From the IMG/VR virus record IMGVR_UViG_2684622580_000006: a DNA stretch of 34,867 nucleotides. One strand, written 5' to 3'. The position numbers were made by a program, and so were the translations under genes. Shown in pieces: positions 4,221 to 34,442 of the stretch. This DNA comes from a virus (Duplodnaviria; Heunggongvirae; Uroviricota; Caudoviricetes). The notes beneath the pieces were generated by a model. That model made no database searches, was not told where the DNA came from, and saw only the letters and a list, made by a program, of their open reading frames with translations. How positions within the stretch are numbered: the first letter of the stretch is position 1; each line of letters begins with the position of its first letter.

Positions 4221-4862
4221 TACGCTCGTCCACTTAGATTCTGAGTTCCATTTACCGATTCGAGAAAAAAACGTATCTTGTTCATTTCCTTTATAACTAC
4301 GATGAACACCATCAGAAGCGTGATTTCTTGCCGATTTCTCAAGAACCTCCCAGATTGAGTTCATAACAGCTTCGGTTTCGTTTTTAGATTCATTATCATC
4401 GTATTCGATATTAACTGTTAATTTATCCATAGAACCAGTAAACAGATTAAAACTCTCTGTTAGACTGCCAGTATTCGGATTCAGAAAACAAATATCAATT
4501 TTAACGTCTGCTCTGTTCAAAGCTTTTGTTCGAATCAAGTTAATATATTCTTTTCGGATATTAGCCAGCTTAACGGTCATACCGATGTTGCTAATTTCTT
4601 TTTCTTCGCTGATTGAACTGATATCAGTAAAGTCACCAGCGGCAATATAATTTTTACCTTGATATTGCAAGTCGTAATAAGCATCAGTTAACAACAGTTC
4701 TGCGCCGTTATGCATCTTAATCTGAACAAGATGAAACAACGTGCCAACACTGAACAACTGACCAGTAGTCAGTTCAGTATAAGCAGTGCCGTTAAAATCG
4801 TTATACGCTTCGATGAAGTCGGGGTCTTTTCTCAGTCTGTTAAATTGGTCTTTTACTGACAT
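4215..4862 (-). CDS. Hypothetical protein (second gene of a minus-strand pair)
   Basis: 215 aa ORF; start overlaps the upstream gene stop by 1 nt (translational coupling); no motif I recognise. Confidence 0.6.
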   Translation of the reverse strand: MSVKDQFNRLRKDPDFIEAYNDFNGTAYTELTTGQLFSVGTLFHLVQIKMHNGAELLLTDAYYDLQYQGKNYIAAGDFTDISSISEEKEISNIGMTVKLANIRKEYINLIRTKALNRADVKIDICFLNPNTGSLTESFNLFTGSMDKLTVNIEYDDNESKNETEAVMNSIWEVLEKSARNHASDGVHRSYKGNEQDTFFSRIGKWNSESKWTSVK

Positions 4863-5437
4863 TACACCACCTCTGTTGCAGTGAGTTTAATATTTGAAAT
4901 TGATGCTAAGTCTAACGGGATAGTATCGTTCGTTAGGATGAATCGTCCTTTTGTTCCTCTGTAACTGACAGTTTCACCAGCTTGAACGTTCTGCAACAGA
5001 TTCGGAAATAGTTTCATCTCTCCACCTGCTTTGACATCCTCCGTCACGGTGTACAGCTTGGAGTGATTCTGAAACTGAACAAGTGCTCCCGCTTCTAAAG
5101 TATCTGCAAAGCTGTTCAGAGTGACCTTACGCGCTCCTTTGTTAGCTGTAACAGATGCTTGGATAAGTCCCTGAGCCGAGCCTTTATAGTCAGTCAAGTA
5201 GCTTAACGGAAAGTCAAACGGTTGACCTTGTTGATGCATCGCGATAAAGCGTTGAACGTGTCTTGTGTCCTGCGACATATAATTCACAGTGAAATTCAAT
5301 TCGAAATATTGAACGCCTGTATAACGTTTCTGAAAACGTCCTGATACTGCTCTGTTAGAGAAAAACGGAGCATTTGATTTAAGCTGAACATCGGTCAGCC
5401 TAACGTCTGTGTCTAATAGATTCATAAGTCCTCTCAT
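4862..5437 (-). CDS. Hypothetical protein (first gene of a minus-strand pair; start may be the internal Met at 5425)
   Basis: 191 aa ORF; AGAGGA precedes the ATG of MNLLDTD at 5425, whereas the ATG at 5437 has no SD. Confidence 0.6.
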   Translation of the reverse strand: MRGLMNLLDTDVRLTDVQLKSNAPFFSNRAVSGRFQKRYTGVQYFELNFTVNYMSQDTRHVQRFIAMHQQGQPFDFPLSYLTDYKGSAQGLIQASVTANKGARKVTLNSFADTLEAGALVQFQNHSKLYTVTEDVKAGGEMKLFPNLLQNVQAGETVSYRGTKGRFILTNDTIPLDLASISNIKLTATEVV

Positions 5438-6309: not shown

Positions 6310-6597
6310 ATGTTAAAAGTTACTGGTCTTGATAAGCTTCAGAAAGAACTCAAGGATGCAAAGCGTATACTGAGTGAGCTGGATGGCGAGCTAGGAGTCG
6401 TAAAGTTTAACCCTAACGACCCTGCTAGCATCGAGTCGGCAATTCAAACAGTTAATCACATGATTGATGAACGCATTGGCGGATGTTCAACCAACTCCAT
6501 AGTCGGCTCGCTTGCGCAGCAGATGAAGGAAACATACAGAGAAGGCATTCTTAAAAAAGCTGCCGAAGCCAGATTGACTTCAAGTGAGGATGAGTAA
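6310..6597 (+). CDS. Small protein (95 aa), first gene of a two-gene cargo operon
   Basis: ATG at 6310 preceded by GAAGGTG; the track ORF starts at TTG 6298; stop overlaps the next ATG by 1 nt (TAATG). Confidence 0.6.
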   Translation: MLKVTGLDKLQKELKDAKRILSELDGELGVVKFNPNDPASIESAIQTVNHMIDERIGGCSTNSIVGSLAQQMKETYREGILKKAAEARLTSSEDE

Positions 6598-7493
6598 TGG
6601 CTCAAGATATTTTTTCTGAAATGAACAATGCTGTTCTGGATTTACAGGCTTCACAATACCAGACCTTTGAACGTCCACTCAAAAAGCTTGCTCAGCTTCT
6701 AAAACATTCCGATCTTGAATCATACAATGCAGACCTGACTGAAGGACTCAATCTTACAGAGTTTCTCGCAGAAAGTGAGAAGACTGGAGGAAGTATGGCT
6801 GGGAGTGCCCAGCTTGTCTGGCCAGATGATGCAAGAAAAACACTAGGCCTTACATTACTTTTGATTTTTAAGTTAGCAGAAGATCCTAATTATGCAATCA
6901 ACTTTGGACATCATTTTTTCTATTCCGGAAGTAAAGTTATAGCAGGCATTCATTCGATTACAGGACAACTTATCATTCCTTTCGTTAGAGATTACAAAAA
7001 TTATGTTCAGTCTAAGGGAAGCACAGAAACTATGTTGAAGCCGCAGTTTTCGAACAAAGTTTTCATTGTTCATGGTCATGATGATGGCGCCCGTGAAACA
7101 GTCGCAAGGTTTCTTGAACGTATAGGTTTAGAAGCAATCATATTACATGAGCAAGCTAATCAGGGACGAACTGTCATTGAGAAAGTTATAGCAAATAGTG
7201 ATGTTGGATTTGCTGTTGTATTGCTAACACCAGATGATGAAGGTTGTGCTAAAGGAGGAATACCAGAACCAAGGGCAAGGCAGAATGTAATGCTAGAATT
7301 AGGATATTTTATCGGGCGTTTAGGCAGAGAGAAAGTATGTGCACTAAAACGCGGCTCACTAGATATTCCAAGTGATTTTGCTGGGGTTGTTTGGGAAAAT
7401 ATGGATAGCAGTGGAGGCTGGAAGCAAGCACTCGCACGAGAACTTGAAGCTGCTGGTCACAATATTGATTGGAATAAAGCAATGCGGAGTTGA
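6597..7493 (+). CDS. Protein with a C-terminal TIR-like nucleotide-binding domain (COG4271 / PF10137-like); candidate defence effector
   Basis: C-terminal segment KVFIVHGHDDGARETVARFLERIGLEAIILHEQANQGRTVIEKVIANSDVGFAVVLLTPDDEG matches the consensus I remember for the 'predicted nucleotide-binding protein containing TIR-like domain' family; the N-terminal ~150 aa are unrecognised. Confidence 0.55.
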   Translation: MAQDIFSEMNNAVLDLQASQYQTFERPLKKLAQLLKHSDLESYNADLTEGLNLTEFLAESEKTGGSMAGSAQLVWPDDARKTLGLTLLLIFKLAEDPNYAINFGHHFFYSGSKVIAGIHSITGQLIIPFVRDYKNYVQSKGSTETMLKPQFSNKVFIVHGHDDGARETVARFLERIGLEAIILHEQANQGRTVIEKVIANSDVGFAVVLLTPDDEGCAKGGIPEPRARQNVMLELGYFIGRLGREKVCALKRGSLDIPSDFAGVVWENMDSSGGWKQALARELEAAGHNIDWNKAMRS

Positions 7494-8768: not shown

Positions 8769-9245
8769 ATGGACAATGAACTGAAAAAACTTATACACGC
8801 ATTCAGAAATGCTCTCGTTATGGCTGCGGATACACATTCATTTGGGTGTTTCAGTATGCCAAGATGGTCAGAGTTAAACAGTTTTCCACATGGTTGCTGT
8901 GACTTAGCAAGTAATTTTCTGGCTCAATATCTCACAGACTATGGATATGAGCCTGAAATAATTTGGTTTGAATGCTGCGAAGAACTAAACAAATATATCA
9001 AATCACACGTAGTTGTTAGGATTAACGATTACTATGTTGATTTAACACGAAATCAATTTGATGATCATAATGGAAGAGTATTGATTGAAGACAAATTCGG
9101 TTCCATTCCACGATTAATTAAACAAATAAAATCAATGAACTCAAATAATGTTGAGGATAGAAATATCAATATTAATACATTTAATTCAAGTGGGTATGAA
9201 CTCTACAGCTATATCAAAAAAATTGCGAATAATTTGATTAACTGA
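8769..9245 (+). CDS. Putative Cys-His-Asp fold protein (papain/transglutaminase-like), paralog 1
   Basis: 158 aa; Cys in FPHGCCDLASNFLAQYL, then SHVVVRINDYYVDLT; shares the H-x2-V-x-[VI]-x2-Y-x2-DL[ST] pattern with the next ORF; GAGGA SD; very AT-rich. Confidence 0.5.
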   Translation: MDNELKKLIHAFRNALVMAADTHSFGCFSMPRWSELNSFPHGCCDLASNFLAQYLTDYGYEPEIIWFECCEELNKYIKSHVVVRINDYYVDLTRNQFDDHNGRVLIEDKFGSIPRLIKQIKSMNSNNVEDRNININTFNSSGYELYSYIKKIANNLIN

Positions 9246-9341
9246 ATAAAATTATTTTAAAAAGGAAAAGAACCAGCATTGGAAATTTATTAAACATGTT
9301 GGTTTTATAATCGATAAAACAATCTGATTGGTGAGAATAAA

Positions 9342-9848
9342 ATGAATAATAATGAAATGAAGCAACAAATAAATGAATTGTCTTCTTATGTTCTGGACAA
9401 GACAATCAAAAAAGAGAAGGCATGTCTCTACATGAGTGCATATCTTTGCGCACTTATCAATGACAACATGAGAATAACCGCAAGATTGATTTCTGGGTCA
9501 CTTGTTATAAAAAACACTAAGATTTTCTCACATGAGCCTATACTGCCGATACTTACTTCGGGGAGCAATTATACCGGAGAATGGGATGGTCATGCTTGGG
9601 TTGAGGTCGCTGGATATATATGCGATTTATCAATCTTTTGTACAATTTTTTCAGAAAGTACATCAACTGAATTGCAGGATGTTTTCATGCAAACATTTGA
9701 TAGATACTATGAATTCTTAATCGCACCAAGAGAAAAACTAGAAGCAGCAGATATTTGCTATAAAGAATGCGAAGAATTAGGTAATGAACAAATAGATATT
9801 CTGATTCACTCAGGAATCAAATCAGGTATCTTAGTCAATCCAGAATGA
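9342..9848 (+). CDS. Putative transglutaminase-like cysteine peptidase fold protein, paralog 2
   Basis: 168 aa; KACLYMSAYLCAL (Cys), then GHAWVEVAGYICDLS, which matches the transglutaminase-like HAWxEV...D signature; stop overlaps the next start (ATGA). Confidence 0.5.
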   Translation: MNNNEMKQQINELSSYVLDKTIKKEKACLYMSAYLCALINDNMRITARLISGSLVIKNTKIFSHEPILPILTSGSNYTGEWDGHAWVEVAGYICDLSIFCTIFSESTSTELQDVFMQTFDRYYEFLIAPREKLEAADICYKECEELGNEQIDILIHSGIKSGILVNPE

Positions 9849-10567
9849 TTACAGAGGATAAAATGGAAGCAAACACTTTTATCGACCGTTTTTTTCATAG
9901 TTCTTATGAATTGACAGATTTTCGTCACGTTGGCGAACGAGACATTAACTCATTGTATACATTTCTGAATTTACTCCATTCTCTAAATGATCGTTTCAGC
10001 AAGGAATTTGGGATAGCTCAACTGGCCAAAAGGCCAGAGTTTAAATTATTACGTTTGATACGTAATTATTTTCAACATGTAGGGGATGTGGACGAATTCC
10101 GTCTATTTCAGACTCGTGATGCCATTTTGACTTCACATATGGAAATGATCATCATCCCAACAGCTTTAGTAGCTCGTGCCATCGAAAGTTTTCGAAACCA
10201 ACCACATAATAAGAAAGATCCAGTACGGGCTGAAAAAGAACTTTCATCCATTGCATCAGCTATCAGCGATTTTGAATATCTTTGTGATAATACGGATCTT
10301 TTTAGAGAAAACCCTCCTTTTCATGATACTGATAATACATATTTCTTAGGTTTTGACCTTTATAAATCCGTGTATAATATTACCAATATCGTAGCAGATA
10401 TATGCAGGAAAAGGGATGAATTTGCAATAAAAAAATGCGTTCAAGAGCTTGAAAAAGAATACACCGAAATGAATAACATACCAAAAGAAAATATATTATT
10501 ACTTGCGGGAAGTCCACCGCCACTACTAACAACCCAAGGTTTTGTGTTTCCTAAAAGGGATAGATAA
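9845..10567 (+). CDS. HEPN-motif protein (Abi-like putative RNase)
   Basis: 240 aa; contains LIRNYFQH, i.e. the R-[N]-x3-H (Rx4-6H) HEPN motif in its usual hydrophobic context; translationally coupled to the preceding gene. Confidence 0.45.
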   Translation: MITEDKMEANTFIDRFFHSSYELTDFRHVGERDINSLYTFLNLLHSLNDRFSKEFGIAQLAKRPEFKLLRLIRNYFQHVGDVDEFRLFQTRDAILTSHMEMIIIPTALVARAIESFRNQPHNKKDPVRAEKELSSIASAISDFEYLCDNTDLFRENPPFHDTDNTYFLGFDLYKSVYNITNIVADICRKRDEFAIKKCVQELEKEYTEMNNIPKENILLLAGSPPPLLTTQGFVFPKRDR

Positions 10568-10608
10568 ATTAAAGTAATTATAGTTCGTATAGATTTTCTT
10601 TTACCAAA

Positions 10609-10650
10609 TATTGTTGATTCGCTATTATACCTTAATAGCAATCAACAATT
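10609..10650. terminator. Imperfect 17-bp palindrome between convergent stops (bidirectional terminator or protein site)
   Basis: ttgttgatt(c)gctatta - tacct - taatagcaatcaacaa; lies exactly between the stops at 10567 (+) and 10656 (-). Confidence 0.4.
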
Positions 10651-10655
10651 GATTT

Positions 10656-11264
10656 TCATATTGCTTTGGTCGGCTTTGAAATTTCAATTTTCACAATTAA
10701 CAGTTCTTCGTCAAAAGATAACTTATTCCCCTTCATTACTTTTCTCATAACGCCGTTCTCATTTTCGAGAGCAGCGTTTTTTAGTTTTAAGGCTTCAATC
10801 TCCTTTCTCAATTCTTCCAATTCGTTGGTGATAACATCAACTTTCTGTTCAGTAGGAAATTCAATTTCTTCTTTAATCTCTACAAAACTCCCAACATATT
10901 GCTGAACAAAGTTATCGGTGTCTTTTTTGTGAATCATAGTCAAGTCTGAACCTAAAGCTTTCCAGTTACGACCTTCACAGCAAACGATCACAGCTTTTGT
11001 CATATCACTTGAATAAGCAACGATAGCAGGCTTGTCGTTCAGTTCTGACATACCGATTTGGAATTTACGCATATCTTTTACAGTCAACGCGTTTTCAACT
11101 TTGCTTAACATCTTTGCTCTGATGTTACGGTGAATCTCTGTAAAGCTACCGATAAAACTTTTCAGCTTGTTTCTGTTATTGGTCATTTCGTTAGTCTTAA
11201 CGATTTTTTTATTCAAGCTAACGTTAGTAGTCCCGTTCAAGTTTTCAAAGATTGAGAAATTCAT
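10656..11264 (-). CDS. Hypothetical protein with C-terminal coiled coil (possible regulator / antirepressor-like)
   Basis: 202 aa; C-terminal ELEELRKEIEALKLKNAALENE heptads; start overlaps the stop of the upstream small HTH ORF. Confidence 0.55.
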   Translation of the reverse strand: MNFSIFENLNGTTNVSLNKKIVKTNEMTNNRNKLKSFIGSFTEIHRNIRAKMLSKVENALTVKDMRKFQIGMSELNDKPAIVAYSSDMTKAVIVCCEGRNWKALGSDLTMIHKKDTDNFVQQYVGSFVEIKEEIEFPTEQKVDVITNELEELRKEIEALKLKNAALENENGVMRKVMKGNKLSFDEELLIVKIEISKPTKAI

Positions 11265-12426: not shown

Positions 12427-13041
12427 ATGTACAAAAGAACTATCAACAACGTAACTTACAAAACCCGTTCTGAACTGGATACTGAGCCAACCGGATTCAG
12501 CGTTTATAAAACCGTTTTCAGTATCAACAATGAATCATTCGTTTATTACGGCAAACAAGCTTTCAACGGTCAGCCTGATATGTCGTATATCGGTTCTGGT
12601 CGCAGAGTTCAGGAAAAACTCGCTGAAATGACCGAGTCAGATATCGTTTATAAAATCGTTCTACAGAATTTTGAATCAGAACAAGAAGCGTATGACTTCG
12701 AATCTGAATGCATTCAATCAGCACGCAAATCGAAGGTTAATATTTTAAATATATCTAAAGGAAACTCCGGTGGTAAGGTCTTTGACAAAATGACAGAAGA
12801 ACAAATTAAACAACGTAACGCGAAAATCTCTATGAGCATGATGGGTCACGAAGTCTCTGATGAAACTCGTCGTAAAATCTCAGAAGCGAAATCTGGTCAG
12901 ACTCGCTCTGATAATACGAAACAAAAAATCGGTGATGCTCTGCACGGTCGCAAAACTGGACCTAAATCAGAAGAAACCAAACGCAGAATGTCAGAAGCAC
13001 ATAAAGCACGTCACGCTAACAAGGAGACAGCGAATGTCTAA
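12427..13041 (+). CDS. GIY-YIG homing endonuclease with NUMOD3-like repeats (Seg / I-TevI-like)
   Basis: 204 aa; N-terminal GFSVYK...FVYYGKQ...YIGSGRR (GIY-YIG spacing) and C-terminal repeats HEVSDETRRKISEAKSG / SEETKRRMSEAHK typical of NUMOD3. Confidence 0.75.
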   Translation: MYKRTINNVTYKTRSELDTEPTGFSVYKTVFSINNESFVYYGKQAFNGQPDMSYIGSGRRVQEKLAEMTESDIVYKIVLQNFESEQEAYDFESECIQSARKSKVNILNISKGNSGGKVFDKMTEEQIKQRNAKISMSMMGHEVSDETRRKISEAKSGQTRSDNTKQKIGDALHGRKTGPKSEETKRRMSEAHKARHANKETANV

Positions 13042-13285
13042 AACTCAGCAGTTTCTAAGACCTGTTATCGTTGCGCTTGTTGTCGTAGGAGGTTGCGCTA
13101 TTGAATCGTGTAGCAGCACAGTATCAAAAGAATCGATTATAAAGCGTGACATCATATGCGCAAATCAGGAGTACAATCCTAAAACTGCAAAGCATGACAT
13201 TGAAATGTGCCGAAAGGGATTCAACAAAAAAGGGAGCATCAGCTCCCTTTTATCATTTAAATCCATGAACCAGCAGCTGCTCTAA
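13034..13285 (+). CDS. Small lipoprotein (83 aa), candidate superinfection-exclusion or spanin-like protein
   Basis: ATG at 13034 preceded by AAGGAG; signal peptide MSKTQQFLRPVIVALVVVGG followed by the lipobox Cys (VVGGC); the track ORF 12860-13285 is an artefactual upstream extension. Confidence 0.6.
   Translation: MSKTQQFLRPVIVALVVVGGCAIESCSSTVSKESIIKRDIICANQEYNPKTAKHDIEMCRKGFNKKGSISSLLSFKSMNQQLL
13226..13253. terminator. Bidirectional terminator hairpin gggagc-atca-gctccc embedded in the 3' end of the lipoprotein ORF
   Basis: 6-bp stem flanked by an A-run (13226-13231) and a T-run (13248-13251); for the minus strand it sits right after the stop of the 59-aa ORF. Confidence 0.45.
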
Positions 13286-18053: not shown

Positions 18054-20030
18054 ATGCTAAAACTAAAACGCGATTTCGAAGCCCAAGAAATTAAAATTAC
18101 TGATGATAGTTATGAAATTGCGTTCTCAAGTGAAACTCCTGTTGAACGTCAAATTCTCGATAGTTACGGTCAACCAATAACAGTTAATGAAATTCTTTTG
18201 CATGACGGTCCTCAAAATGCTGACCTCGAGCGAATCAATAACGGCGCTGCTCTGTTGTTTAACCATAATTTCGACAATCATCTAGGCGTTGTAATTCCCG
18301 GGTCTGTAAGAATCGATAATGACCGTAAAGGTCGCGCTGTTGTTAAATTCAGTAAAGTTGGTCAATTAGCTAACGAAATTAAATCAAAAATCGACGAAGG
18401 AACAATTTCTAAAATTTCTTTCGGCTACGACATTATTGAATATGAACTCAAAGGAGACGACTTGTTAGTTTCTCGTTGGAGTCCGTATGAAATTTCTTTC
18501 GTTACTGTTCCTGCTGACGACAAAGTTGGCTTGGGAAGACTTCTAAATACAGATGACAAAACAATTAACGTTGAAGGAAAAAGAATGAATTTTGGTGAAA
18601 TCACTCTCGAAGAACTTCAAACACTTTCTCGCGAACAACTTGCGGAAATGAATGTTGAAGAAATTGAAGCGATGCCAGAAGAACTTCGTTTGAAGCGTGA
18701 AGAACTATTAGCGGAAGAAGCTGATATTCAGGATATCAAAGAAGAAGTTCAAGAAGCATCCGAAGAACAGACTGTTCCAGAAAAACAGGAACAAGAAGTA
18801 CAGAAAACCGAAGCTGAAATTGAGGCTGAAAAAGCTGCTGAAATGGAAGCGCTAAATAAAGAAAAAGAACGAGTTGAAGAAATCGAAGATATTTCGGTTC
18901 GATACAAAGTTCCTTACGAAAAAACGAAATCTGCTATTGAAGACAAAATGTCTGTTTCTGATTTCAAACGCTCTATTAAACCTAATAACGCTCCTACGGT
19001 GGTAAGAAAAATGACTAAAGATACTCAAATTGAACTTGAAAACAAATTTAATCTGGCTAACGCAATGCGCGCAATTGCTGACGGTAAAGCACTGACTGGT
19101 GCAGAAGCTGAATATACTCAAGAAATGATTTCTAAACGTCAGAAAGCTGGTCGCGGTATCGTTTCTAACGGTCTGTATCTGCCTCTGTCAGTTCTGAAAG
19201 GCAAACGCGCTATTAACACTGTCCCGACTGTTTCCGCGATTCAGCAAGTTGAACAGCGTTATGACAGCTTTGTTGAAATGCTGCTTGCTCCGACTGTTCT
19301 AGGTCGTATGGGTGTTAACTTCCTGACTGGTCTGAATACTCCGATTTCTGTGCCTAAGCAAACTGCTAGTTCTGTTGATGCTTTCGGTTTCGTTGATGAA
19401 AACGGTGCTTCTCCAGAAGGCGAAAGCAAATTTGCTAACGTTCAGTTCATGCCGAAAACATTTACTGGTGGTAACCCGATTTCTCGTCAAGCGATGCTGA
19501 CTATGCCGAATCTTGAACAGTTTATTTCTGATCATATCGTTAAGCACTCACGCGCTAAACTGGAAGCTCTGATTCTGGGTTCTGCAACTGACGCTAAAGC
19601 TCCTGAATCTCTGGACGCTCAATTGACCGCTACTTCTATGGGCATGACCTATAAAGAATTCGTTAAAGCTGCTGCTAAAGCGAAAGGTAAAGGCGTTGAC
19701 ATGGACAAGTTCATGTATCTGATGGATGCCGAAACTGAAGGTGATCTGAAAACCACTCTGCGTGACGCTGGTGTTGCAGGTTACATCGTAGGTGAAGACA
19801 ACAAACTGGGTGGACACGAAGTTGTTGGTTCCGGTCTGGTTAAAGATGGCACTATCTTTGCTGGTGATTTCTCTGCTCTGACTGTTGCTGAGTGGGAAGG
19901 TATCGGTATTGATATCGACGACACAACTTATCGTAACGCAGGCGCTATCGTTCCTCGTGTTTGGGCTGACATCGACTGGAAAGTTACTGCTGACGACCGT
20001 CTGTTTAAATACGTAAAAACGGGAGCTTAA
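18054..20030 (+). CDS. Fused prohead protease - scaffold (coiled coil) - HK97-fold major capsid protein
   Basis: N-terminus carries U35/HK97-protease-like motifs (NHNFDNHLG; ISFGYD; YEISFVTVPAD); a central acidic coiled coil (about residues 190-290); the C-terminal 350 aa look like an HK97-type capsid protein. Confidence 0.75.
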   Translation: MLKLKRDFEAQEIKITDDSYEIAFSSETPVERQILDSYGQPITVNEILLHDGPQNADLERINNGAALLFNHNFDNHLGVVIPGSVRIDNDRKGRAVVKFSKVGQLANEIKSKIDEGTISKISFGYDIIEYELKGDDLLVSRWSPYEISFVTVPADDKVGLGRLLNTDDKTINVEGKRMNFGEITLEELQTLSREQLAEMNVEEIEAMPEELRLKREELLAEEADIQDIKEEVQEASEEQTVPEKQEQEVQKTEAEIEAEKAAEMEALNKEKERVEEIEDISVRYKVPYEKTKSAIEDKMSVSDFKRSIKPNNAPTVVRKMTKDTQIELENKFNLANAMRAIADGKALTGAEAEYTQEMISKRQKAGRGIVSNGLYLPLSVLKGKRAINTVPTVSAIQQVEQRYDSFVEMLLAPTVLGRMGVNFLTGLNTPISVPKQTASSVDAFGFVDENGASPEGESKFANVQFMPKTFTGGNPISRQAMLTMPNLEQFISDHIVKHSRAKLEALILGSATDAKAPESLDAQLTATSMGMTYKEFVKAAAKAKGKGVDMDKFMYLMDAETEGDLKTTLRDAGVAGYIVGEDNKLGGHEVVGSGLVKDGTIFAGDFSALTVAEWEGIGIDIDDTTYRNAGAIVPRVWADIDWKVTADDRLFKYVKTGA

Positions 20031-25338: not shown

Positions 25339-25755
25339 ATGTTTAAATTTCAAGCTGACTTATCAAAATTACTGAATCGATATATCAACAAAGAACATCA
25401 ATTCGGTCAAAACGACTGTAATATCCTTGTTGCTGAATATATCGACCTTGTTTGTGTTACTGAATACACAGACAAATTAAAAGACAAATATACGAGTATT
25501 CCTGAAGGTCTCAAGATTTGCAAAAAACTCACTGGTTTTAACAACGTTCTCGAAGCTTGTGAAAATCATCTTGAGAAATCAGAAAAGATAGAAACTGGCT
25601 CGGTTATCTTAATTAAGAAAAAACATAAAAACCGTGTCTATTACGTTGCGTCCATCGTTTTCAATAATCAAGCATTAGTTGAACACGAAAACAAATACAA
25701 ACTAGTGAACGTCAACGATTTTAACTTTGAATTAATTTTTAACAGGAGAAAATAA
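25339..25755 (+). CDS. Hypothetical protein (138 aa), translationally coupled to the gpJ-like gene
   Basis: Stop overlaps the next ATG (TAATG). Confidence 0.55.
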
Positions 25756-28700
25756 TGGCCATTGCTGCTATTGGTGCAATTATTGCGGGTGCTTCCGCTG
25801 CTGCTGCTGCATATGCCGCTGGTGCTGCAATTGCTGTTGCTATCGGTATTGGTGTTGCTGTTGCTGCTGTTTCGGGATTAATGTCCTATTCGATGAAAGA
25901 ATCTGTTCCTCGATTTAATAGCGCAGACACTGCAACGACATTAGGAACAACGTCTGACCCTGCAAGCGTAATTCCTATTATCTACGGCGAACAACGCACA
26001 GGGACAATTAACGTTTGGAAAGCTGTTGGTGTCGATACGACTTATCTGGTGCAAGTCTTTGCAATCTGTGAAGGAGAAGTTGATAGCTTCAAAAACCTGT
26101 ATATGGATAATCAGAAAATCTTACTTGATGGAACTTACAGAGATGGAATTTTAGATAAAGGCTCTATCGCTGCCGAATATCAGAATTTCGTTGAAATTGA
26201 ATTCTCAACTGGTAAACCATACGGTCACGTTTTCACGCTTGCTCAAAAATATCTGGGTAATGATGTTGCTGGTTGGCCTGATTCTGCAACTGGTAATGGT
26301 ATCGCTTCTGTGTGTGTTGTTATGCGCAAACGTAACACAGACTTAGAAAACCAAGCTGATATTCTGCAACCTAACAGTCAAGTAGCTGTTGACGTTAGAG
26401 GACGTTTGATTACAGACCTGAACACAGGAGGCATCGTCCCTTCAAACAATGGTCCTAGTCAAGCAGTCGATTATCTGACGAACGAACGTTACGGTCTGGG
26501 TATTCCACTTGATAAAATCAATCTTGATAGTTTCAAGCAATGTGCAGAACACGCAAAACTGAACAGTCTGTTTTCTAACGGTGCAACTGACCCGAATGGT
26601 TCATTCAAAGAAAACTTAACTCAGATTGCAGGTGCTTTTAACGGTATTATCACTGAATCTTTCGGACTGGTTACTTGCGTTATCGATGGTCCTGGTGTTG
26701 TTCAATATGATTTCAACGAAGATAATATTAATGCTGGAACTGTTAGCTTGAATGATGGCGGAACAGAGAATTACTACAATACTCTGAACGTGAAATATCA
26801 AGATCCTGAAATCGATTATTCTGACCAAGTTCTTCGTTATCCGTCTGACGTAACAAATGATGGAACTATCGCGAAAGACAAACGTATTATCGCAAAAGAT
26901 ATCAGTTACAGATTCGTTAAAGGAAAAGACCAGTTAGACAAAATTGCTTCAATCGAACGAAGCAAATCACTGTTACAACAGGTTATTAGTTTTTCTTCTA
27001 CTGATGCTTATACCGTACAAGTATGGGATATTATCAGAGTTAATTTCGAAGAACTGGAACTGACTGATTCATTATGGCGAGTAACTAACGTTGATCGCAC
27101 GATGGAAAAAGGTGCTGCTGGTATCGTTACTATTACCGCTGCTGAATATATCGAAGAAGTTTATACCGATCTTGACTACGCGAAAGACCCGGATAACTCA
27201 GGAAGTAACATTCCAAACAAAGCTGTTCTTATTCCACCGAAGAATCTGACAGTTAAAGCAGTTGCTGAAACAGCACTCGGAAGAACTTTGAAAGTGCAAT
27301 GGACGTCTGAACCTGATTATAACCGCGCAGGTTATTATATTCAGTATAGTCTTGCTGGCAAGAACTCCTGGACTCAAGCAGGTTTCACATCAGGCGATTA
27401 TTTCTTGATTATGAGTCTTGATCCTAATCAGAAATTTGATATTCGTGTTTGTGCTTCTGGTGTTGTGTATCGTTCAGATTGGGTATATGTGAATAACGTT
27501 AACCCTGATGTTACGTATAACTTACCAAGCGTCACAGGATTACGCCTAGTGAACGCGGTTGAAAATCAGTACACCACTAACAAGACTCAATTTGAATTCG
27601 CTTGGGACGACCAGAGCGCACAGAAATTCTATGTTGACGACACGTTACAGACATTCGGTGAAGTTTTTCAATATTACGAAATTAAACTCGAAGGTCAACG
27701 TCCTGTAATTTGCAAGACTAAAGATTTAGGTTTTGTATATGACTTTAATATGAACTTGGGTAATGGTCTGAGTCGTGAACTGAAAGTTTCTGTTACTGCA
27801 TACGGTCACGCTGGTATGAAATCAGATCCGAGTATTATTACTGTTAAGAACAATCAAGCTCCTGCGATTCAAGGTTTCACAGCTTCTAATGGTCCTGGAA
27901 TGCTGATGTGTTCATGGAATGACCCACGCGATAATATTCCTGAAGTTCCTGACTTCAAAGGCACAATCGTTCATATTGCGAAAGACCAAAGCTTTAATGA
28001 AATTGTCCACGTTTATTCAAGCTCAAGTCCGTTTTTAGACAACTTCCCGTTAGAAGATGGTCAATTCTATGTTCGTGCAGCATGGTATGACGTTTTCGGA
28101 CAAGACCAGATTACTTGGTCACAGGCGACTTATATCGATATGAAATGGGATATTCCATGGAACGACGATATGAAAGACCAGTTGGAAGACTTGTTAGATC
28201 TGAACAACCGAGTTGATGGTGCTATCGATGAAGCGTTGAAACTTGCTAAGGAATATACTGACACCGAGGTTATTGCTTCTGAACAAAAAGTTGTTACCGA
28301 ACTGAATCAGACAATCACAACGAAAAACACCGAACTGTATACACAAATTACAGATGAAACGAATGGCGCTATTAATCAGGCTATTACGATTCAAGAGGCG
28401 AATTTCGATGGAAAACTGAATTCAGCAATCACTAAAGTTGAAAAAACTCAAGCTGATGATAGAGAGGCAACTGCAAGTTCTATTAGCCAACTGAAAGCTG
28501 AAACTGACTCGGCAATTGCAAGTGTTTCAACAGAAGCAAAAGCAAGCGTTGACGAACTGACAGGAACTATTAACAGCAAATGGGCAGTTCAGACTAATGC
28601 CGACGGTGTTGTTGCTGGTATCAGTATGCTCGCTAATAAAAATGCTGACGGTTCGAAATCATCAAGCATTATTTTCAACGCTGATAAAATCGCTATTACG

Positions 28701-29444
28701 AATAACAACACTCCTGAAGGTGCTGTTCCTCCGTTCATGGTTGCAGATAATAAGACTTATCTTCAAGATGCTATGATTCGCGATGCTTCAATCGGTAATG
28801 CGAAAATTGGTTATGCTGCTATTGATACAGCGAAGATTCAAGACGCTGCTATTAACAACGCTAAAATTCAAGATGGTGCTATTACATCAGCGAAGATCGG
28901 TAATGCTCAGATCGGTAATGCTCAGATTGCTTATGAAATATCGTCTGATAACTGGTTCCCTTCCGGTGGTACTCAAGGTTGGACAATCAGAAAAGACGGT
29001 TGGGCTTCTTTCCAAAACGTTAATATCAGAGGTAACATTCAAGCAGATTCTGGTTATTTCGCAGGTGAAATCAGAGGCGGTTCAGGTTATTTCACAGGAA
29101 CTGTATACGCTGACAGAATTGAAGGTGACGTTATCAAAATGGGTCATATAGATCCGTGGACAACAGTTCATATTCCTGCTGTTAACTGGAACAGAGTAAT
29201 TGCTATTCCAAACCTTGCGATTTCAGGCAGAACTTATTCTGGTGGCGCTTGGGGCTACGGAACTGCATGGATTAATATGACGAACGGTCAAGAAATCGTA
29301 AGAACAGTTACCAGTGCAATGAGTGGTTCAAACGGTGGTACGGCTATTATCTATGCGGGACAAGCTGTTGATTTGAGTTACGGTGCTGACTTGAATCATG
29401 CGACCGCAGCAAGAGCAGTTTACTTTATCAGTAAACAACAATAA
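25755..29444 (+). CDS. Host-specificity / central tail fiber protein (lambda gpJ-like) with an unusual hydrophobic N-terminal segment
   Basis: 1229 aa; [23 protein letters not shown] resembles gpJ ISEGPIEGPVDGLKSVLLNSTPVLD; FN3-like block ([13 protein letters not shown]...); [13 protein letters not shown]...[10 protein letters not shown] resembles gpJ GIGLSMEDTEEGK...FVAQGNQIF; first 45 residues are Ala/Gly/Ile-rich. Confidence 0.6.
28783..28932 (+). repeat. Tandem hexapeptide-coding repeats inside the gpJ-like gene
   Basis: Encodes [52 protein letters not shown]; the nucleotide repeat atcggtaatgctcag is directly duplicated. Confidence 0.6.
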
Positions 29445-29488: not shown

Positions 29489-29773
29489 ATGGTCGATATG
29501 GCACTGATCATTTCCATCTTGGGTGCTCTAGGAGGTTTCTTGGCTTGGGTTTATGCCGAAATTAAATCAAACAATGAAAAACGACTTGACCTTGAGAAAC
29601 GTTTCTCAGACATCGAAAAAAGCATTGCCGTTAATGACGCAAAAGATGCTTCGCTTATAAGCGATATAACCAGACAACAGGATGAATTTCGAGAGGTCAA
29701 ATCTGATTTGAAGAATTTAGAAGGAAGGACATCAAAGCTAGACATCGACCTAGCAGTTCTAAGAGGAAAATGA
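29489..29773 (+). CDS. Membrane-anchored coiled-coil protein (holin / i-spanin-like topology)
   Basis: 94 aa; N-terminal transmembrane helix MALIISILGALGGFLAWVYA followed by a charged coiled coil; AAGGAG SD. Confidence 0.5.
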   Translation: MVDMALIISILGALGGFLAWVYAEIKSNNEKRLDLEKRFSDIEKSIAVNDAKDASLISDITRQQDEFREVKSDLKNLEGRTSKLDIDLAVLRGK

Positions 29774-30246
29774 AAAGAAAAGAGATTCCGATTTATAAGC
29801 AAGAACTCTTTCAAAAGCAAAAAGGTCTTTGTGCGTTAACAGGCATAAAGATTCACGAAGTTAATAAAGCCCATCTTGACCATGACCATATTTTAACAGG
29901 CTCTAACGCAGGCAGATGCAGAGGATTATTAATCGCTCAAGCAAACGTCCTCGAGGGTAGAATAAAACATCAGTTTAAACGTTCAGGTCTCGATGGGAAA
30001 ATTGACTACATCGAGTTTTTAAAGAATCTTGTTCAGTATCTTGAAAAAGACTACTCAGACAATCCTACGCATCCACAACTTATTCCCGATTTAAAGAAAG
30101 CGTTCTCTCGAAAAAATCTTTCTGAGATGAAAGCTATTACAGGTTCAAACCTTAAAACGAAAAAGGAGCTTGAAAAAGTCTACTCAAACCAAATAAAGGT
30201 GAAATATGAAAATGAAATATCTCCAAGCAATGGCAAAACACGCTAA
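29770..30246 (+). CDS. Endonuclease VII (T4 gp49-like Holliday junction resolvase) homolog
   Basis: 158 aa; HLDHDHILTGSNAGRCRGLL...EGRIKHQFKRSGLDGKIDYIEFLKNLVQYLEKDYSDNPTHP aligns closely to T4 Endo VII HLDHDHELNGPKAGKVRGLL...EGQMKHKFNRSGLKGQGVDYLEWLENLLTYLKSDY. Confidence 0.85.
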   Translation: MKRKEIPIYKQELFQKQKGLCALTGIKIHEVNKAHLDHDHILTGSNAGRCRGLLIAQANVLEGRIKHQFKRSGLDGKIDYIEFLKNLVQYLEKDYSDNPTHPQLIPDLKKAFSRKNLSEMKAITGSNLKTKKELEKVYSNQIKVKYENEISPSNGKTR

Positions 30247-30403
30247 AGATTATCTTATTGTTCTATTTCTCGTTACTGTAACTTATAACACTGTTGCTGT
30301 TCCTGTTCTGCAAGCTTTCGATATTAAAGCGCCTAAAATGATTCTTATCAGCGAAGAACAGATTAAAACATTCGGGGCACTTCTGATGTCAGGAGTGAAC
30401 TAA
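30206..30403 (+). CDS. Small membrane protein (65 aa), holin/antiholin-like
   Basis: AGGTGA SD 5 nt before the ATG; one hydrophobic helix YLIVLFLVTVTYNTVAVPVLQAF; overlaps the 3' end of the Endo VII gene. Confidence 0.4.
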   Translation: MKMKYLQAMAKHAKDYLIVLFLVTVTYNTVAVPVLQAFDIKAPKMILISEEQIKTFGALLMSGVN

Positions 30404-30945
30404 TGGCAAAAGCAAAAGATGTTATGAAAGACCTTGAAAAATGGCGAATCAAAGAATCTGACGTGTTCAGTAAGAAAGTAACCAAAGCGTCTAAACTCGC
30501 TTCTGTTGAGTTGCAAAGAAAAATCAATAGACGTGTTGACGGACCAGTTAATTTCACTAAGAACGCAGTAGGTTTCAGTTTCAGATACGATCAGAACGGG
30601 TCACGAAATAGAATATTCATCAAAGACAAGCAGGCTGATTATCTTGCTCCGTTGATTGATGATAACAAAGGAATTAACAAGTTTGTTCCAACTGGCGTAA
30701 GAGGTTCAAAGAACAAATTCGGTAACATTCCTAACTTGAAATCAAGAAATAATCTTGAAGCTGTCAAACAGAAAAAAGATGGCGTAACTCGAACGATCCT
30801 CATTAAAACTAACGTTAAAAAGCAAGACCGTCGTTTAATTGCTGTGTTCAAGAAAAATCAACATAGAAGAAAAACTCTGGGTTCATGGAATCAAATCTCT
30901 GACGATTTTTTCAAAACCGTTAAGCGTGTTGCGGGCACTAAATAA
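30403..30945 (+). CDS. Basic hypothetical protein (180 aa)
   Basis: Lys/Arg-rich; coupled to the preceding ORF. Confidence 0.55.
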   Translation: MAKAKDVMKDLEKWRIKESDVFSKKVTKASKLASVELQRKINRRVDGPVNFTKNAVGFSFRYDQNGSRNRIFIKDKQADYLAPLIDDNKGINKFVPTGVRGSKNKFGNIPNLKSRNNLEAVKQKKDGVTRTILIKTNVKKQDRRLIAVFKKNQHRRKTLGSWNQISDDFFKTVKRVAGTK

Positions 30946-30962: not shown

Positions 30963-31280
30963 ATGAACATTCACGATTTTGATACTTACAGATTAGACGA
31001 ACTTGCCGACATCTACGTTAACGAGATTAATCCCGAGTCAATGACTGTTCCTTACGGTTGCGAACACATCAAAGATAAGCGCATTAAAAAATATCTGTTC
31101 AACGATAAAAACGTTTTTATTGTTTCAACACAAAAGAAAAAACCTAATTGTCATTTCAAATTAGGACAGACAGTTCGACTGCAAGGTCCATTTTTTGAGA
31201 CCGAAGCGAAGAACTTAGGAATGATTGAATATATCCACAAAGGTTTCAGAATGTACGGATATTTCTTTCAATGGAAATAA
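30963..31280 (+). CDS. Hypothetical protein (105 aa)
   Basis: AAGGAG SD; followed by an imperfect hairpin plus T-tract at 31286-31307. Confidence 0.55.
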   Translation: MNIHDFDTYRLDELADIYVNEINPESMTVPYGCEHIKDKRIKKYLFNDKNVFIVSTQKKKPNCHFKLGQTVRLQGPFFETEAKNLGMIEYIHKGFRMYGYFFQWK

Positions 31281-31343: not shown

Positions 31344-31652
31344 ATGAATTTCGATGAAATGTTAGCATCATTATCACCAAAACGCGAAGCTGTTGAAATC
31401 AACGGTTATAAATTCTATGCACGTCCGATGACTGTATCCGAGTTTGGTGAATTCTATTTCAAAAATGAAAACACAGAAGAACGTAATGACCGAATGATTC
31501 TGAATTGTATTCAGCACGAAGACGGAACAAGCGTTTTTAAAGAAATCTCTCAAGTTCAGAAACTTTATACAACTGTTCGTTCGCAACTCGCAAGCGCTGT
31601 TTCAAACGCTAGTATTCTGACTAAGGATTCAGACATTCTGGAAAAGAACTAA
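31344..31652 (+). CDS. Tail assembly chaperone (lambda gpG-like)
   Basis: 102 aa ORF immediately upstream of the tape measure gene; the next ORF overlaps in the -1 frame. Confidence 0.6.
   Translation: MNFDEMLASLSPKREAVEINGYKFYARPMTVSEFGEFYFKNENTEERNDRMILNCIQHEDGTSVFKEISQVQKLYTTVRSQLASAVSNASILTKDSDILEKN
31640..31646 (+). other. Candidate -1 programmed frameshift site G_GAA_AAG (G to GT fusion)
   Basis: In the chaperone frame ...CTG GAA AAG AAC TAA; the -1 frame is open from 31625 and continues into the 31688 ORF, which has no SD of its own; the Lys tRNA can re-pair on AAA. Confidence 0.45.
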
Positions 31653-31687
31653 GACAGAACTGGGCAAAATCATTTCAGTATCGAACA

Positions 31688-32050
31688 ATGTTACGTCGCG
31701 GATTATCTAACGAAGAAATTCAACAGATGTCCGTAATGATGTATTATGAATTATGGTTTTTCGATTCGTTTATTGAACCACAAAGTCCTGTCTATAACGA
31801 TTTCTATCAAGCTCGATTGATTCACACTATCGAAGCAAATAACCCGAATCTGACCAAAGAGTACAGGAAAAAGTTGAACATGAAAGACCATCAGCTTATT
31901 AAAGATTCTGTGTTTAAGTCTCAAGAAGAAATCGAAAAAGAGAAAGAACAACAGGAGATTAAACGTAAGAAAGCTATTGAATCGATGTTCGACCCAGCTC
32001 TGTTAGATAAAGTTAAACTGAGAAAAACAAAAAAGGTGAATAATGGCTAA
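31688..32050 (+). CDS. Tail assembly chaperone C-terminal extension (gpT-like), probably expressed as a G-T fusion
   Basis: 120 aa ORF in the -1 frame relative to the chaperone ORF; no ribosome-binding site upstream of its ATG; overlaps the tape measure start by 8 nt. Confidence 0.5.
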   Translation: MLRRGLSNEEIQQMSVMMYYELWFFDSFIEPQSPVYNDFYQARLIHTIEANNPNLTKEYRKKLNMKDHQLIKDSVFKSQEEIEKEKEQQEIKRKKAIESMFDPALLDKVKLRKTKKVNNG

Positions 32051-34442
32051 ATCACGTTATGACGTTGAGATTAACGGAGATAACAAAGGCCTTTCAAAAT
32101 CTATTGATAAGTCTATGGAGCAACTGAACGAACTTGATTCGGTTGCTAATGGACTTTTTAGTAATATGACAGGACCGTTGAATAATCTCAACAGTGGAAT
32201 ATCAGGTATTGCAGGAATGTCCTCGGGTATGCAAGCTCTGGGGATTGCAGGAATGGCAGCAGGTGTAGGTGTCGCCGCTCTTAATACCGCTTTAGAAAAA
32301 ACAAGAGAACTTAATCAGATCTCTACGTCAACTGGACTTTCAGTTGAATATCTGCAACAGCTTCAAAAAGAATTTCGCACTACAGGAATGGAAATTGACC
32401 GATTCGGGGATCTTAACAAAGATACTCTCGACCATCTCGGTGATTCATTCAGAGAAGGCGCAGGTGGTATTGGTGATGACCTTGAAAAATGGGGTATTGG
32501 TCTTGAGCGATACACTCAATATGTTAACGACGCTGAAGGCGGTATTAAAGCACTTGTTCAGACGTATTATGACCTGAAAAAAGCTGGTGCAAGTCAAGCT
32601 GAAATCGTTAACGGAATGGAGTCTATGGCTTCTGACGGTTCTCACTTGATTACTGTTCTTGAAAAATACGGCTCAACTCAAGAAGCATTAAACGCTATCA
32701 ATAACCAATCAGCTAGTATTACAAACGAAACAGCAAGAGAATACCAAGGATTCGATGAAAACATGAAAACGCTTTCGGTGAACTTGGATAATTTAACTGT
32801 TAACGTTATGGGTCCTCTCGTTTCGAAAATGAATAATCTTTATGATATTGCGAATAAAGATTGGACAGCTAGTAATATCCTCGATTTCTTTACTAAGATT
32901 GATAGCTTACGTCCTGATAAGATGTTAGCAGATTGGGCGGCTGACACAGTTGTTGATGCTTACGCAGACGCTAATCCTACTTCTGGCGCAGGTCAACGTA
33001 AACAGCAAAAAGATTATCTTGATACGACAGAACGTTTTCTGAAACAGACCAAAGCTCAAGGCGATAAAGCTTATGAAAAACGTAAGCAAGACGAAATAAC
33101 ACGAGCGAAGTTACAGAAACAGCGTAATGAGAAAGCCGCTGAGGATGCGAAAAAAGAAGCTGATAAAGCTAAACGCGAAGCTGACAGAATAGCAAGAGAG
33201 CAAGAACGCGCTGGGAAAGAAAAGCTACGCTTACAGGAGCAAGCCGCAAGAGAATCTAAAGCTGCTTACGATAAGATGATGCAAGAAAGGGAGACAGCGT
33301 TACAGAGTCTTTCCAGTCTTGATGCTGCAATTCTGAGTCAAGAAGGTCGCACGATTTCAAATCAGGTTAGTCAAGTTCAACAGGCTATTAAAACTATCTC
33401 AGAACTTGAGAAAAAAGGAATTATCTCCGCTGAACAGGCTAAGCAACGTCGAAACATGCTGTTTAAAACATCTAATGCAGAATTTAAACAGACTCTTATG
33501 ACGAGTCCTGAAGAAATTGGAGCAATCACGACAAGTCTTGAAGTTGTATATCAGCAACAGCTTGAACAACTCGAAGCGAAGAAAGCCCAGTCGTTAATCA
33601 GTCAGCAAGAATACAACACACAGGTTGAAGCATTACAGCAAGACCATCAGTCACGTCTTGAAGCTATTAAAGCAACGAGCGGTGACGGTAATATGGCTAA
33701 TATGAAAAATCTCAGTGCGTTGGGTTTTGCAACTGACGAAGAACAGATGGCTATTCAACAAGCCGCGTTAGATGAACAATTTCAGAAAATGCGTGAACAG
33801 AACCAGAAATTATATGATGGTCAGTTAATCAATCACGAGCAATTCCTGCAACAGAAAGCACGTCTTGACCAAGCGTATGCCGCGAAGTCGAAACAAATTA
33901 CTTTCTTGGAAACTCAGACGAAACTCCAGATGTATAACGGGTTGGCTTCTGGTATGGGTTCAATAATCGCTGGTATCGCAGGTGAAAGTTCGGACGCTGC
34001 TCAAGCTGTATTTGCTATTCAGAAAGGAACAGCAATCGCAAGCGGTATGTTAAACGCTTATGAATCCGCGACTGCTGCAATGGCTAAATATCCTGGTCCT
34101 ATGGGTTACGCTATGGCTGCTTCAAGCTATGCGCGTGTTATCGGACAAGTCTTGCAGATGAAATCAGTGAATATTACTGGTATGGCTCACGATGGTATTT
34201 CAGAAGTGCCAAGAGAAGGGACATGGTTGCTTGATGGTGGCGAACGTGTTGTTGATGAACGCACTAACGGCGACTTAAAAGAATTCTTAGACAATAACAA
34301 AATAGGAGAAGCAACAAAAATCGATGCAAGTATTCACGTAAATGGAAATGTTACTGATCAGCGTTGGTTTGCTGAACAATTAAAACGTCAGCAACAGAAC
34401 ATCGCGGCTATTGTGCAAGACTGCAACAGACGCAAGATGTAA
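32043..34442 (+). CDS. Tail tape measure protein
   Basis: 799 aa, alpha-helical; Gly/Ala-rich hydrophobic segments (GIAGMSSGMQALGIAGMAAGVGVAAL; GLASGMGSIIAGIAG); long charged coiled coil (KAAEDAKKEADKAKREADRIAREQERAGKEK); follows the G/GT pair. Confidence 0.75.
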   Translation: MAKSRYDVEINGDNKGLSKSIDKSMEQLNELDSVANGLFSNMTGPLNNLNSGISGIAGMSSGMQALGIAGMAAGVGVAALNTALEKTRELNQISTSTGLSVEYLQQLQKEFRTTGMEIDRFGDLNKDTLDHLGDSFREGAGGIGDDLEKWGIGLERYTQYVNDAEGGIKALVQTYYDLKKAGASQAEIVNGMESMASDGSHLITVLEKYGSTQEALNAINNQSASITNETAREYQGFDENMKTLSVNLDNLTVNVMGPLVSKMNNLYDIANKDWTASNILDFFTKIDSLRPDKMLADWAADTVVDAYADANPTSGAGQRKQQKDYLDTTERFLKQTKAQGDKAYEKRKQDEITRAKLQKQRNEKAAEDAKKEADKAKREADRIAREQERAGKEKLRLQEQAARESKAAYDKMMQERETALQSLSSLDAAILSQEGRTISNQVSQVQQAIKTISELEKKGIISAEQAKQRRNMLFKTSNAEFKQTLMTSPEEIGAITTSLEVVYQQQLEQLEAKKAQSLISQQEYNTQVEALQQDHQSRLEAIKATSGDGNMANMKNLSALGFATDEEQMAIQQAALDEQFQKMREQNQKLYDGQLINHEQFLQQKARLDQAYAAKSKQITFLETQTKLQMYNGLASGMGSIIAGIAGESSDAAQAVFAIQKGTAIASGMLNAYESATAAMAKYPGPMGYAMAASSYARVIGQVLQMKSVNITGMAHDGISEVPREGTWLLDGGERVVDERTNGDLKEFLDNNKIGEATKIDASIHVNGNVTDQRWFAEQLKRQQQNIAAIVQDCNRRKM

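Follow-up and report, generated by a model that had tools for sequence, protein, structure and literature searches.

A zinc-less variant of endonuclease VII encoded in the tail cassette of an enterobacterial prophage

The window analyzed here, a 34,867-nucleotide stretch of DNA from the IMG/VR virus record IMGVR_UViG_2684622580_000006 (Caudoviricetes), carries a temperate element of about 34 kb that encodes, among its tail genes, a 158-amino acid (aa) homolog of the phage T4 endonuclease VII (Endo VII, T4 gp49). The T4 enzyme is a standard example of a junction resolvase and is in wide use as a reagent for cleaving mismatches and heteroduplexes; both its folding and its DNA binding are considered to require the zinc site. 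We found that three of the four zinc ligands have been replaced in the prophage protein, that its catalytic residues are retained, and that the gene is under strong purifying selection at a conserved genomic position. At a probability of roughly 70%, we consider the gene to encode an active, late-expressed resolvase of branched DNA of the gp49 type, in which the zinc knuckle would have been replaced by side-chain packing.

The Endo VII gene (29770-30246, plus strand) starts with an ATG that overlaps the stop codon of the upstream open reading frame (ORF) as ATGA, with a GAGG motif 3 bases before the start, and start/stop codon overlaps with neighboring genes were present at both of its ends. 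The same coding sequence was called by NCBI PGAP ("endonuclease domain-containing protein", WP_053264352.1) in Escherichia coli chromosomes that are 100% identical to the window over a 3-kb query. A phmmer search of PDB sequences matched the protein to T4 endonuclease VII (1e7d/1en7) at E=2.1e-27, with query residues 10-122 aligned to T4 residues 12-126. The original prediction, made by a model from the DNA sequence, that the protein is homologous along its length to the T4 enzyme and has its HLDHDH core, was thereby borne out, the core being identical in the two. Identity to T4 gp49 was 39% over a co-linear stretch of about 115 residues, the lengths of the two proteins are 158 and 157 aa, and the alignment contained just two single-residue gaps, none near the zinc ligands. 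The window protein also scored 41.7 bits against Pfam PF02945 (cut-off 23.6) and E=5.7e-36 against PHROG 423 "endonuclease VII". Thus, both in its sequence similarity and in having the beta-beta-alpha-metal fold, it falls within the Endonuclease VII family (PF02945, the "DHHRN" family of Fang et al. 2018). The AlphaFold model had a mean pLDDT (predicted local distance difference test) of 88, with the former knuckle segments in blocks of 95 and 88, and the next-best structural matches after T4 Endo VII were Cas9 HNH domains. The features of the gene, all on the plus strand, are as follows.

29770-30246 (+): Endo VII homolog, 158 aa (phmmer, PF02945, PHROG 423)
29830-29841 (+): former first zinc knuckle, C21-A-L-T24 (T4 C23-L-I-C26), from the alignments; C21 is invariant in the clade of close homologs
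29872-29889 (+): catalytic cluster H35-L-D37-H38-D-H40 (T4 H38, D40, H41, H43), identical to T4; H35, D37, H38 and H40 are clade-invariant
29917-29922 (+): C50-R51, the second Cys (T4 V53) and the conserved active-site Arg (T4 R54), from the clade alignment
29932-29955 (+): former second knuckle and start of the catalytic helix, I55-A-Q-A58-N59-V-L-E62 (T4 C58-N-L-C61-N62-A-A-E65), from the alignments
30070-30192 (+): C-terminal helical region matching the T4 Endo VII dimerization domain (PF09124, below cut-off; model helices 104-113, 117-124 and 131-147)

The CX2-4C and CX2C motifs of Endo VII bind one zinc (Fang et al., PMC6083498), and the pattern CX2-4C...DHDH...CX2C has been called highly conserved among 313 homologs (PMC6083498). 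In the alignment, which is free of gaps around the ligands, T4 C23/C26/C58/C61 correspond to C21/T24/I55/A58 of the window protein. Specifically, the first knuckle reads GLCALTG in place of GKCLICQ, matching C21 to C23 and T24 to C26, and the second reads LLIAQANV in place of LLCNLCNA, matching I55 to C58 and A58 to C61. The T4 ligands were given as Cys23, Cys26, Cys58 and Cys61 in the original prediction, in agreement with the mutants C23S, C26S, C58S and C61S covered in PMC6083498, and its reading of the zinc-binding cysteines as lost, with C-T-I-A in their place, proved right. It had also raised the possibility that the ligands are conserved but shifted; the alignment and the cysteine count exclude this, since there are only two cysteines in the whole protein (C21 and C50), making a shifted four-cysteine site impossible. 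The zinc-knuckle pattern of the family (CX2-4C...CX2C) is therefore absent, the two segments being C21-x-x-T24 and I55-x-x-A58, and given the unambiguous homology we class the protein as a zinc-less variant within a homologous family and not as a canonical member. The family's catalytic residues (T4 D40, H41, H43, R54 and N62, together with E65) are all present, as D37, H38, H40, R51, N59 and E62.

In T4, the knuckle that has been lost here connects the hairpin at the N-terminus with the beginning of the catalytic helix. With Thr, an aliphatic residue (I/L/V) and Ala at three of the ligand positions, hairpin and helix would therefore have to be held together by packing and not by metal. We propose that T24, I55 and A58 pack against the still-invariant C21 in place of a zinc ion that is presumably no longer bound. 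Catalysis would proceed as in T4, using a metal site at D37/N59 and the histidines H38/H40, and the enzyme would be expected to dimerize.

A search of 5.8 billion proteins recovered 24 close relatives, from E. coli, Enterobacter hormaechei, Klebsiella aerogenes and Pantoea, 22 of which were full length and were aligned, down to 52% identity. All 22 shared an incomplete zinc site. C21 was invariant, position 24 was T or S, position 58 was A or V, and position 55 wandered among I, L, V, T, C and H, as expected for a residue that no longer binds metal. Among the catalytic residues, D37, H38, H40, R51 and N59 were invariant and E62 nearly so (Asp in P0001), while C50 was present in 19 of the 22, with I or T in its place in P0004-P0006. 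Additionally, C-T-C-A was seen in two proteins from K. aerogenes and C-T-H-V in two from Pantoea, forms that look like partly degraded sites and thus apparent intermediates.

Comparison of the window copy with a 96%-identical E. coli copy revealed 10 synonymous differences and 1 non-synonymous difference, a ratio of non-synonymous to synonymous substitution (dN/dS) of 0.024 (Nei-Gojobori), and ratios of 0.10-0.19 were obtained against the Enterobacter and E. coli PSS-15 copies. These low values (0.02-0.2) show that the gene has been kept as a protein, under strong purifying selection. Moreover, three further complete E. coli genomes matched the 3-kb query around the Endo VII gene at 100% identity, 28 member sequences formed a cluster at 99% identity, and the reading frame was intact across four genera. 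A pseudogene or a sequencing error was rejected based on the identical copies and the dN/dS.

The same data bear on whether the protein might be an inactivated or decaying relic, perhaps one that binds DNA without nuclease activity, with its fold compromised by the loss of zinc. The T4 precedent would favor such a fate, in that equivalent mutants of the T4 enzyme are inactive: according to the account of Giraud-Panis 1995 given in PMC6083498, C23S and C61S were inactive and did not bind DNA, and C26S and C58S were each active alone, with the C26S/C58S double mutant again inactive and not binding DNA. Some prophage copies have, in addition, been degraded by insertion sequence (IS) elements. However, a relic is difficult to reconcile with strong purifying selection, with a frame that is intact in four genera, with the invariance of D37, H38, H40, R51 and N59 (and near invariance of E62) in a clade that extends down to 52% identity, or with the presence of the catalytic set in 71/72 zinc-less representatives of the wider family, described below, and we regard it as highly improbable.

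Another alternative is that the metal site has been remodeled, for example from C21, C50 and a His or carboxylate, such that zinc dependence has been kept. C21 is invariant and C50 occurs in 19/22 homologs, and Cys at the C50 column was somewhat more common among zinc-less (40%) than among zinc-type (23%, 17/73) representatives of the wider family, all of which would fit a remodeled site. Yet P0004-P0006 are without C50, the same Cys is found in 17/73 enzymes that already have a complete site, no additional conserved His or Cys has arisen in the clade (every invariant histidine is present in T4 as well), and 13/72 zinc-less representatives contain a single Cys or none. We therefore consider a remodeled site decidedly unlikely. 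The narrower proposal that C50 compensates for the lost ligands was likewise found to be unsupported, this residue being absent from three clade members and present in 23% of the full-site enzymes.

To locate the point of loss, we scanned 1.84 billion cluster representatives exhaustively with HMMER. This gave 267 relatives at E<=1e-3, and the best 150 were aligned with the clade and T4. The closest non-clade sequences (P0025-P0037) had CCCC or CCHC at the ligand positions, apart from P0034 (N-terminally truncated) and P0036 (A-V), in which the N-terminal knuckle was unscorable; the 12 top-ranked full-length hits from beyond the clade were of these two types without exception. Among cultured phages, the closest proteins were T4-like gp49s at 46-47% identity, from Klebsiella phage KP15 (GLCALCG...LLCNLCN) and Aeromonas phage UP87 (...LLCPQCN). 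In a neighbor-joining reconstruction computed from the alignment minus the four ligand columns, and with no bootstrap, the clade was monophyletic and nested inside the zinc-type gp49 group. The CCHC enzyme P0025 is encoded on a 32-kb metagenome contig (L016) and is 46% identical to that of the window, and the same cassette, here with a CCCC enzyme, was found in the "phage DCP80" block (GenBank PQ671644.1); overall, the L016 and DCP80 enzymes are 41-46% identical to the window's. The tail-tip, 180-aa and 105-aa neighbors of the window gene had 29-60% identity to their counterparts in L016 (CCHC) and DCP80 (CCCC). Zinc-type and zinc-less versions of the same gene thus occupy the same place in one phage lineage, and the loss therefore occurred within that lineage, a lineage of temperate phages of Enterobacteriaceae; the case for an independent loss is founded mainly on the gene order shared with zinc-type relatives and on how the hits rank.

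The cassette around the nuclease gene and the tail genes on either side of it comprise the following features.

25755-29444 (+): tail-tip (J-like) protein, 1229 aa, directly upstream of the cassette (PHROG 31 "central tail fiber J", E=4.6e-59; PGAP "phage tail tip fiber protein")
29489-29773 (+): 94-aa ORF with an N-terminal segment of transmembrane (TM) type (hydrophobic residues 1-19) and a coiled-coil tail (PHROG 1009, unknown function)
29770-30246 (+): Endo VII homolog
30206-30403 (+): small ORF, 65 aa (PGAP start 30212), with one TM-type segment by hydrophobicity; overlaps the 3' end of the Endo VII gene
30403-30945 (+): 180-aa cassette protein, 60% identical to a 177-aa protein of L016 and 53% to a 183-aa protein of DCP80 (weak match to PHROG 1924 "minor tail protein", E=1.5e-4)
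30963-31280 (+): 105-aa cassette protein, 42% identical to L016 and 29% to DCP80; no family match
31344-31652 and 31688-32050 (+): tail assembly chaperone ORFs, downstream of the cassette (PHROG 344 "tail assembly chaperone", E=3.8e-6)
32043-34442 (+): tape measure protein (PHROG 13674 "tape measure", E=2.4e-72)

From the tail tip through the small ORF and Endo VII to the ~180-aa protein, gene order was kept in Enterobacter, Pantoea, E. coli PSS-15, L016 and DCP80. An upstream ORF of the TM/coiled-coil type was present at the same spot in L002, L005, L007, L015 and L016, and the small downstream ORF was annotated or found in all of the relatives named above except Enterobacter, with lengths of 57 aa in Pantoea, 70 aa in E. 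coli PSS-15, 55 aa in L016 and 57 aa in DCP80. In the window, the two small flanking ORFs have one 19-residue hydrophobic segment each, with Kyte-Doolittle means of 2.07 and 2.16; for the downstream ORF, this was computed for the window, and the L016 and DCP80 ORFs were judged hydrophobic by eye. The small membrane ORFs of the window had no BLAST similarity at 1e-3 to those of L016 and DCP80, the correspondence being one of position and build only. On L016, the proteins of which are 40-60% identical to their window counterparts, the genes run in the order tape measure, distal tail protein (Dit), hub, DUF6950, tail tip, 101-aa ORF, Endo VII, 55-aa ORF and 177-aa protein, and then an acetyltransferase gene (on the opposite strand), a 104-aa protein, lysozyme and a serine recombinase. 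In relatives that have this canonical order, the cassette ends the tail operon, just ahead of the lysozyme gene.

Because the cassette is also present in relatives with a zinc-type enzyme, its position predates the loss of zinc, and it looks "embedded" in the window because the chaperone and tape-measure genes now come after it. The position of the cassette is a stable hallmark of this phage group and not evidence of unusual function. Hence, while the original prediction correctly placed the gene between tail genes and between small membrane proteins, its description of this site as atypical for a DNA-processing enzyme needs qualifying, given a cassette that is conserved and that also occurs with zinc-type enzymes. 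T4 gp49, too, acts late and is associated with packaging.

The conserved neighborhood is also where a conflict role has to be weighed, in which the protein would be a selfish homing endonuclease (of the DHHRN type, as F-CphI) or a partner of the flanking membrane proteins, for example in excluding superinfecting phages, degrading host DNA or timing lysis. Homing endonucleases do use Endo VII catalytic domains (PMC6083498), the arrangement small TM ORF, Endo VII, small TM ORF is conserved in the relatives (the downstream ORF except in Enterobacter), and the cassette adjoins the lysozyme gene where the order is canonical. However, the gene has a fixed position in E. coli, Enterobacter, Pantoea and two more distant relatives and has diverged at about the rate of its neighbors (46% versus 40-60% identity), and is therefore the opposite of a sporadic homing gene. 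Moreover, the protein is built as T4 gp49 is, with an N-terminal catalytic domain followed by C-terminal helices, whereas in F-CphI the DNA-binding part comes first and the catalytic domain is C-terminal, and no hydrophobic segment was found in the Endo VII protein itself. Overall, we view a conflict role as unlikely. Two more specific candidates were rejected. For a free-standing homing endonuclease of the F-CphI type, the catalytic domain is at the wrong end, being N-terminal, and the gene is at the same place in every relative examined. For a terminase-associated HNH endonuclease of cos phages, the gene lies too far away, about 14 kb downstream of the large terminase (TerL) gene, and TerL has its own gpA nuclease domain (PF20454).

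Several other observations concern the cassette and its relatives. A spanin-like or holin-like role in lysis is possible for the flanking membrane ORFs because they lie near the lysozyme gene in relatives. The tail-tip protein opens (25755-25900, plus strand) with a hydrophobic stretch of about 45 residues, rich in Ala, Gly and Ile, that is similar in the DCP80 homolog and seems unusual for J-type proteins. L016 (1-12291) is in the canonical tail order, with proteins 40-56% identical to those of the window. The PQ671644.1 record ("Escherichia phage DCP80", L015 1-36000) is 141 kb long and is placed under Tevenvirinae/Gaprivervirus. It opens with a block of about 25 kb that contains a lambda-type gpA terminase, a siphophage-like tail module and the Endo VII cassette, after which come T4-like genes (motA, nucleoid disruption protein), and it looks like a chimeric assembly of two phages.

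Across the wider family, 149 sequences were scored, namely those of the top 150 representatives that had all four columns, plus T4, the query and three clade members. A full ligand set was found in 73 of these (42 CCCC and 31 CCHC) and at most two ligands in 75, in a sample that is biased in that the query itself is zinc-less. Leaving out the added clade members, D-H-H-R-N was kept in 71 of the 72 zinc-less representatives; the first ligand column was Cys in 53 and Asp in 18 of them, and 13 had no more than one Cys in the whole protein. The zinc-less sequences fell in several separate parts of the tree and included the "DNA endonuclease VII" of a cultured jumbo phage, Escherichia phage A4 (Asteriusvirus), which reads D-I-Q-V. 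On these alignments, loss of the zinc site is common in the family and not peculiar to the window gene, and the published picture of a "highly conserved" CX2-4C...DHDH...CX2C is clearly incomplete, sample bias notwithstanding. We found no description of a zinc-less Endo VII in the literature searched, which covered few subscription papers.

With regard to function, the Endo VII gene is part of a structural operon, would be translationally coupled to its neighbors, and would be made late, an expression pattern that fits the T4 gp49 precedent. The most likely job of the protein would be that of gp49 in T4, here the debranching of replicated or recombined concatemers for packaging by the lambda-type gpA terminase. 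In T4, gp49 reportedly associates with the portal protein. It clears branches from DNA ahead of packaging (PMC5714182).

Several points weigh against an active resolvase of the gp49 type. The packaging role is borrowed from T4 by analogy. Given the inactive T4 mutants, the same substitutions would kill the T4 enzyme, so compensating changes must exist, and a column-association scan found no single change of this kind: in a mutual-information scan for columns that track zinc status, the ligand columns alone emerged, the next best being weak (<=0.33 bits) and confounded by phylogeny. Furthermore, the confidence of the AlphaFold model is no proof of a stable metal-free fold. The dimerization domain PF09124, through which gp49-type resolvases form a domain-swapped dimer, matched the window protein at E=0.0031 and 18.1 bits, under the cut-off of 22; precomputed PF09124 matches are available on the clade members P0017-P0023. 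Finally, the reading leaves the conserved pairing with two membrane-type ORFs unaccounted for. It is also conceivable, though in our estimate improbable, that the loss was adaptive and not neutral, freeing the late-acting resolvase of a temperate phage of gut Enterobacteriaceae from zinc and from oxidizable thiolates so that packaging could occur in a zinc-starved or oxidatively stressed host (as in the inflamed gut, the condition under which prophages are induced), by analogy with zinc-free ribosomal protein paralogs. A bolder version of this idea would also take the invariant pairing with the membrane ORFs to mean that the nuclease may act in a membrane-linked process distinct from T4-style debranching.

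Compared with T4 gp49 (PDB 1EN7, 1E7D, 2QNC; PF02945 and PF09124), the window enzyme is alike in HLDHDH, in the residues R54, N62 and E65, in the C-terminal helical region of its model and in belonging to a late gene, and differs in having T for C26, I for C58 and A for C61. The setting differs as well, the window gene being in the tail/late operon of a ~34-kb temperate element with a gpA terminase, whereas the T4 gene is located beside nrdD in a 170-kb lytic genome. With L016 (P0025) and DCP80 the window shares the whole cassette (tail tip, TM/coiled-coil ORF, Endo VII, small TM ORF, ~180-aa and ~100-aa proteins). In contrast to the window, their enzymes have a complete zinc set, their tape measure precedes the tail tip, and their cassette abuts the lysozyme gene. 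The other zinc-less Endo VII proteins (phage A4 and metagenomic clusters) likewise are without CxxC...CxxC and have D-H-H-R-N, on separate branches of the tree; in these, the residue at the C58 position is usually polar (D, S, H, Q), and C23 is in some cases replaced by Asp, whereas the window clade keeps C23 and the window enzyme has an aliphatic residue (I) at C58.

The persistence of a motif after the loss of its structural zinc is known from the "zincless finger" of NEIL1 (Fpg/Nei family). Many His-Me fingers are also without a zinc knuckle (PMC5714182). Those such as the Cas9 HNH domain and P1 Ref provide a precedent for the fold persisting without structural zinc, in different families; compared with them, the loss in the Endo VII clade would be recent, and it concerns a family for which the published consensus includes the knuckle. 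A natural, strongly conserved Endo VII that has no zinc site, together with syntenic CCCC and CCHC relatives and apparent intermediates, would offer a ready series for studying how a His-Me finger is stabilized without metal and for tracing the loss of a structural zinc site. The survey further revises the published impression that nearly all members of the family bear CxxC...CxxC, since around half of the diverse representatives retrieved were without this pattern, and a metal-free, Cys-poor Endo VII could make a more robust reagent. In other respects, there is nothing out of the ordinary about this phage resolvase gene or the late operon to which it belongs, and the zinc-less variant is widespread in sequence databases and not a new kind of system.

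The element that harbors the gene lies between host ybiT (153-1745, minus strand) and ldtB and was present in 7 of 5,426 complete E. coli genomes. A megablast of the region against 50,697 phage records gave no match, and the element is known as a prophage only. Its other features are listed below by position.

1785: serine recombinase
4215-5437 (-): hub and Dit
5471: lysozyme
6597-7493 (+): TIR-domain protein, 298 aa, with a C-terminal TIR of the CAP12/Pycsar-effector type (PF10137, E=4.8e-38)
7683: small terminase
12427-13041 (+): NUMOD3 homing-endonuclease-like ORF (PHROG 314, E=4.8e-18; PF07460, E=1.6e-9)
13528 (-): GntR-type regulator
14034: large terminase of the gpA type, which includes a nuclease domain (PF20454, E=4.9e-47)
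16435: lambda-family portal
18054-20030: protease-capsid fusion, 658 aa, intact in the window
21898: tail fiber, 943 aa
25339: DUF6950

No replication gene, recombination gene, other resolvase gene or classical CI/Cro-type gene was recognized in the element (1785-34867), and the ORFs at 8769-11264 and 12860-13285 had no match to a family of known function. The TIR-domain protein, encoded between the lysozyme and small-terminase genes, is probably a prophage-borne defense gene product. The NUMOD3 protein resembles the DNA-binding part of homing endonucleases and is encoded just upstream of the GntR regulator and large terminase genes. The tail module is split and partly inverted, with Dit and hub on the minus strand at the left end, by the serine recombinase, and the chaperones and tape measure at the right end (31344-34442, plus strand). 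In the copy of E. coli E-93, an IS3 interrupts the protease-capsid gene and an IS50R is located near the recombinase (L001 7719-11031, L008 5463-6893). No coding sequence is annotated there over most of the span that matches the 943-aa tail-fiber gene of the window, and based on the insertions and this unannotated span, the E-93 copy is defective.

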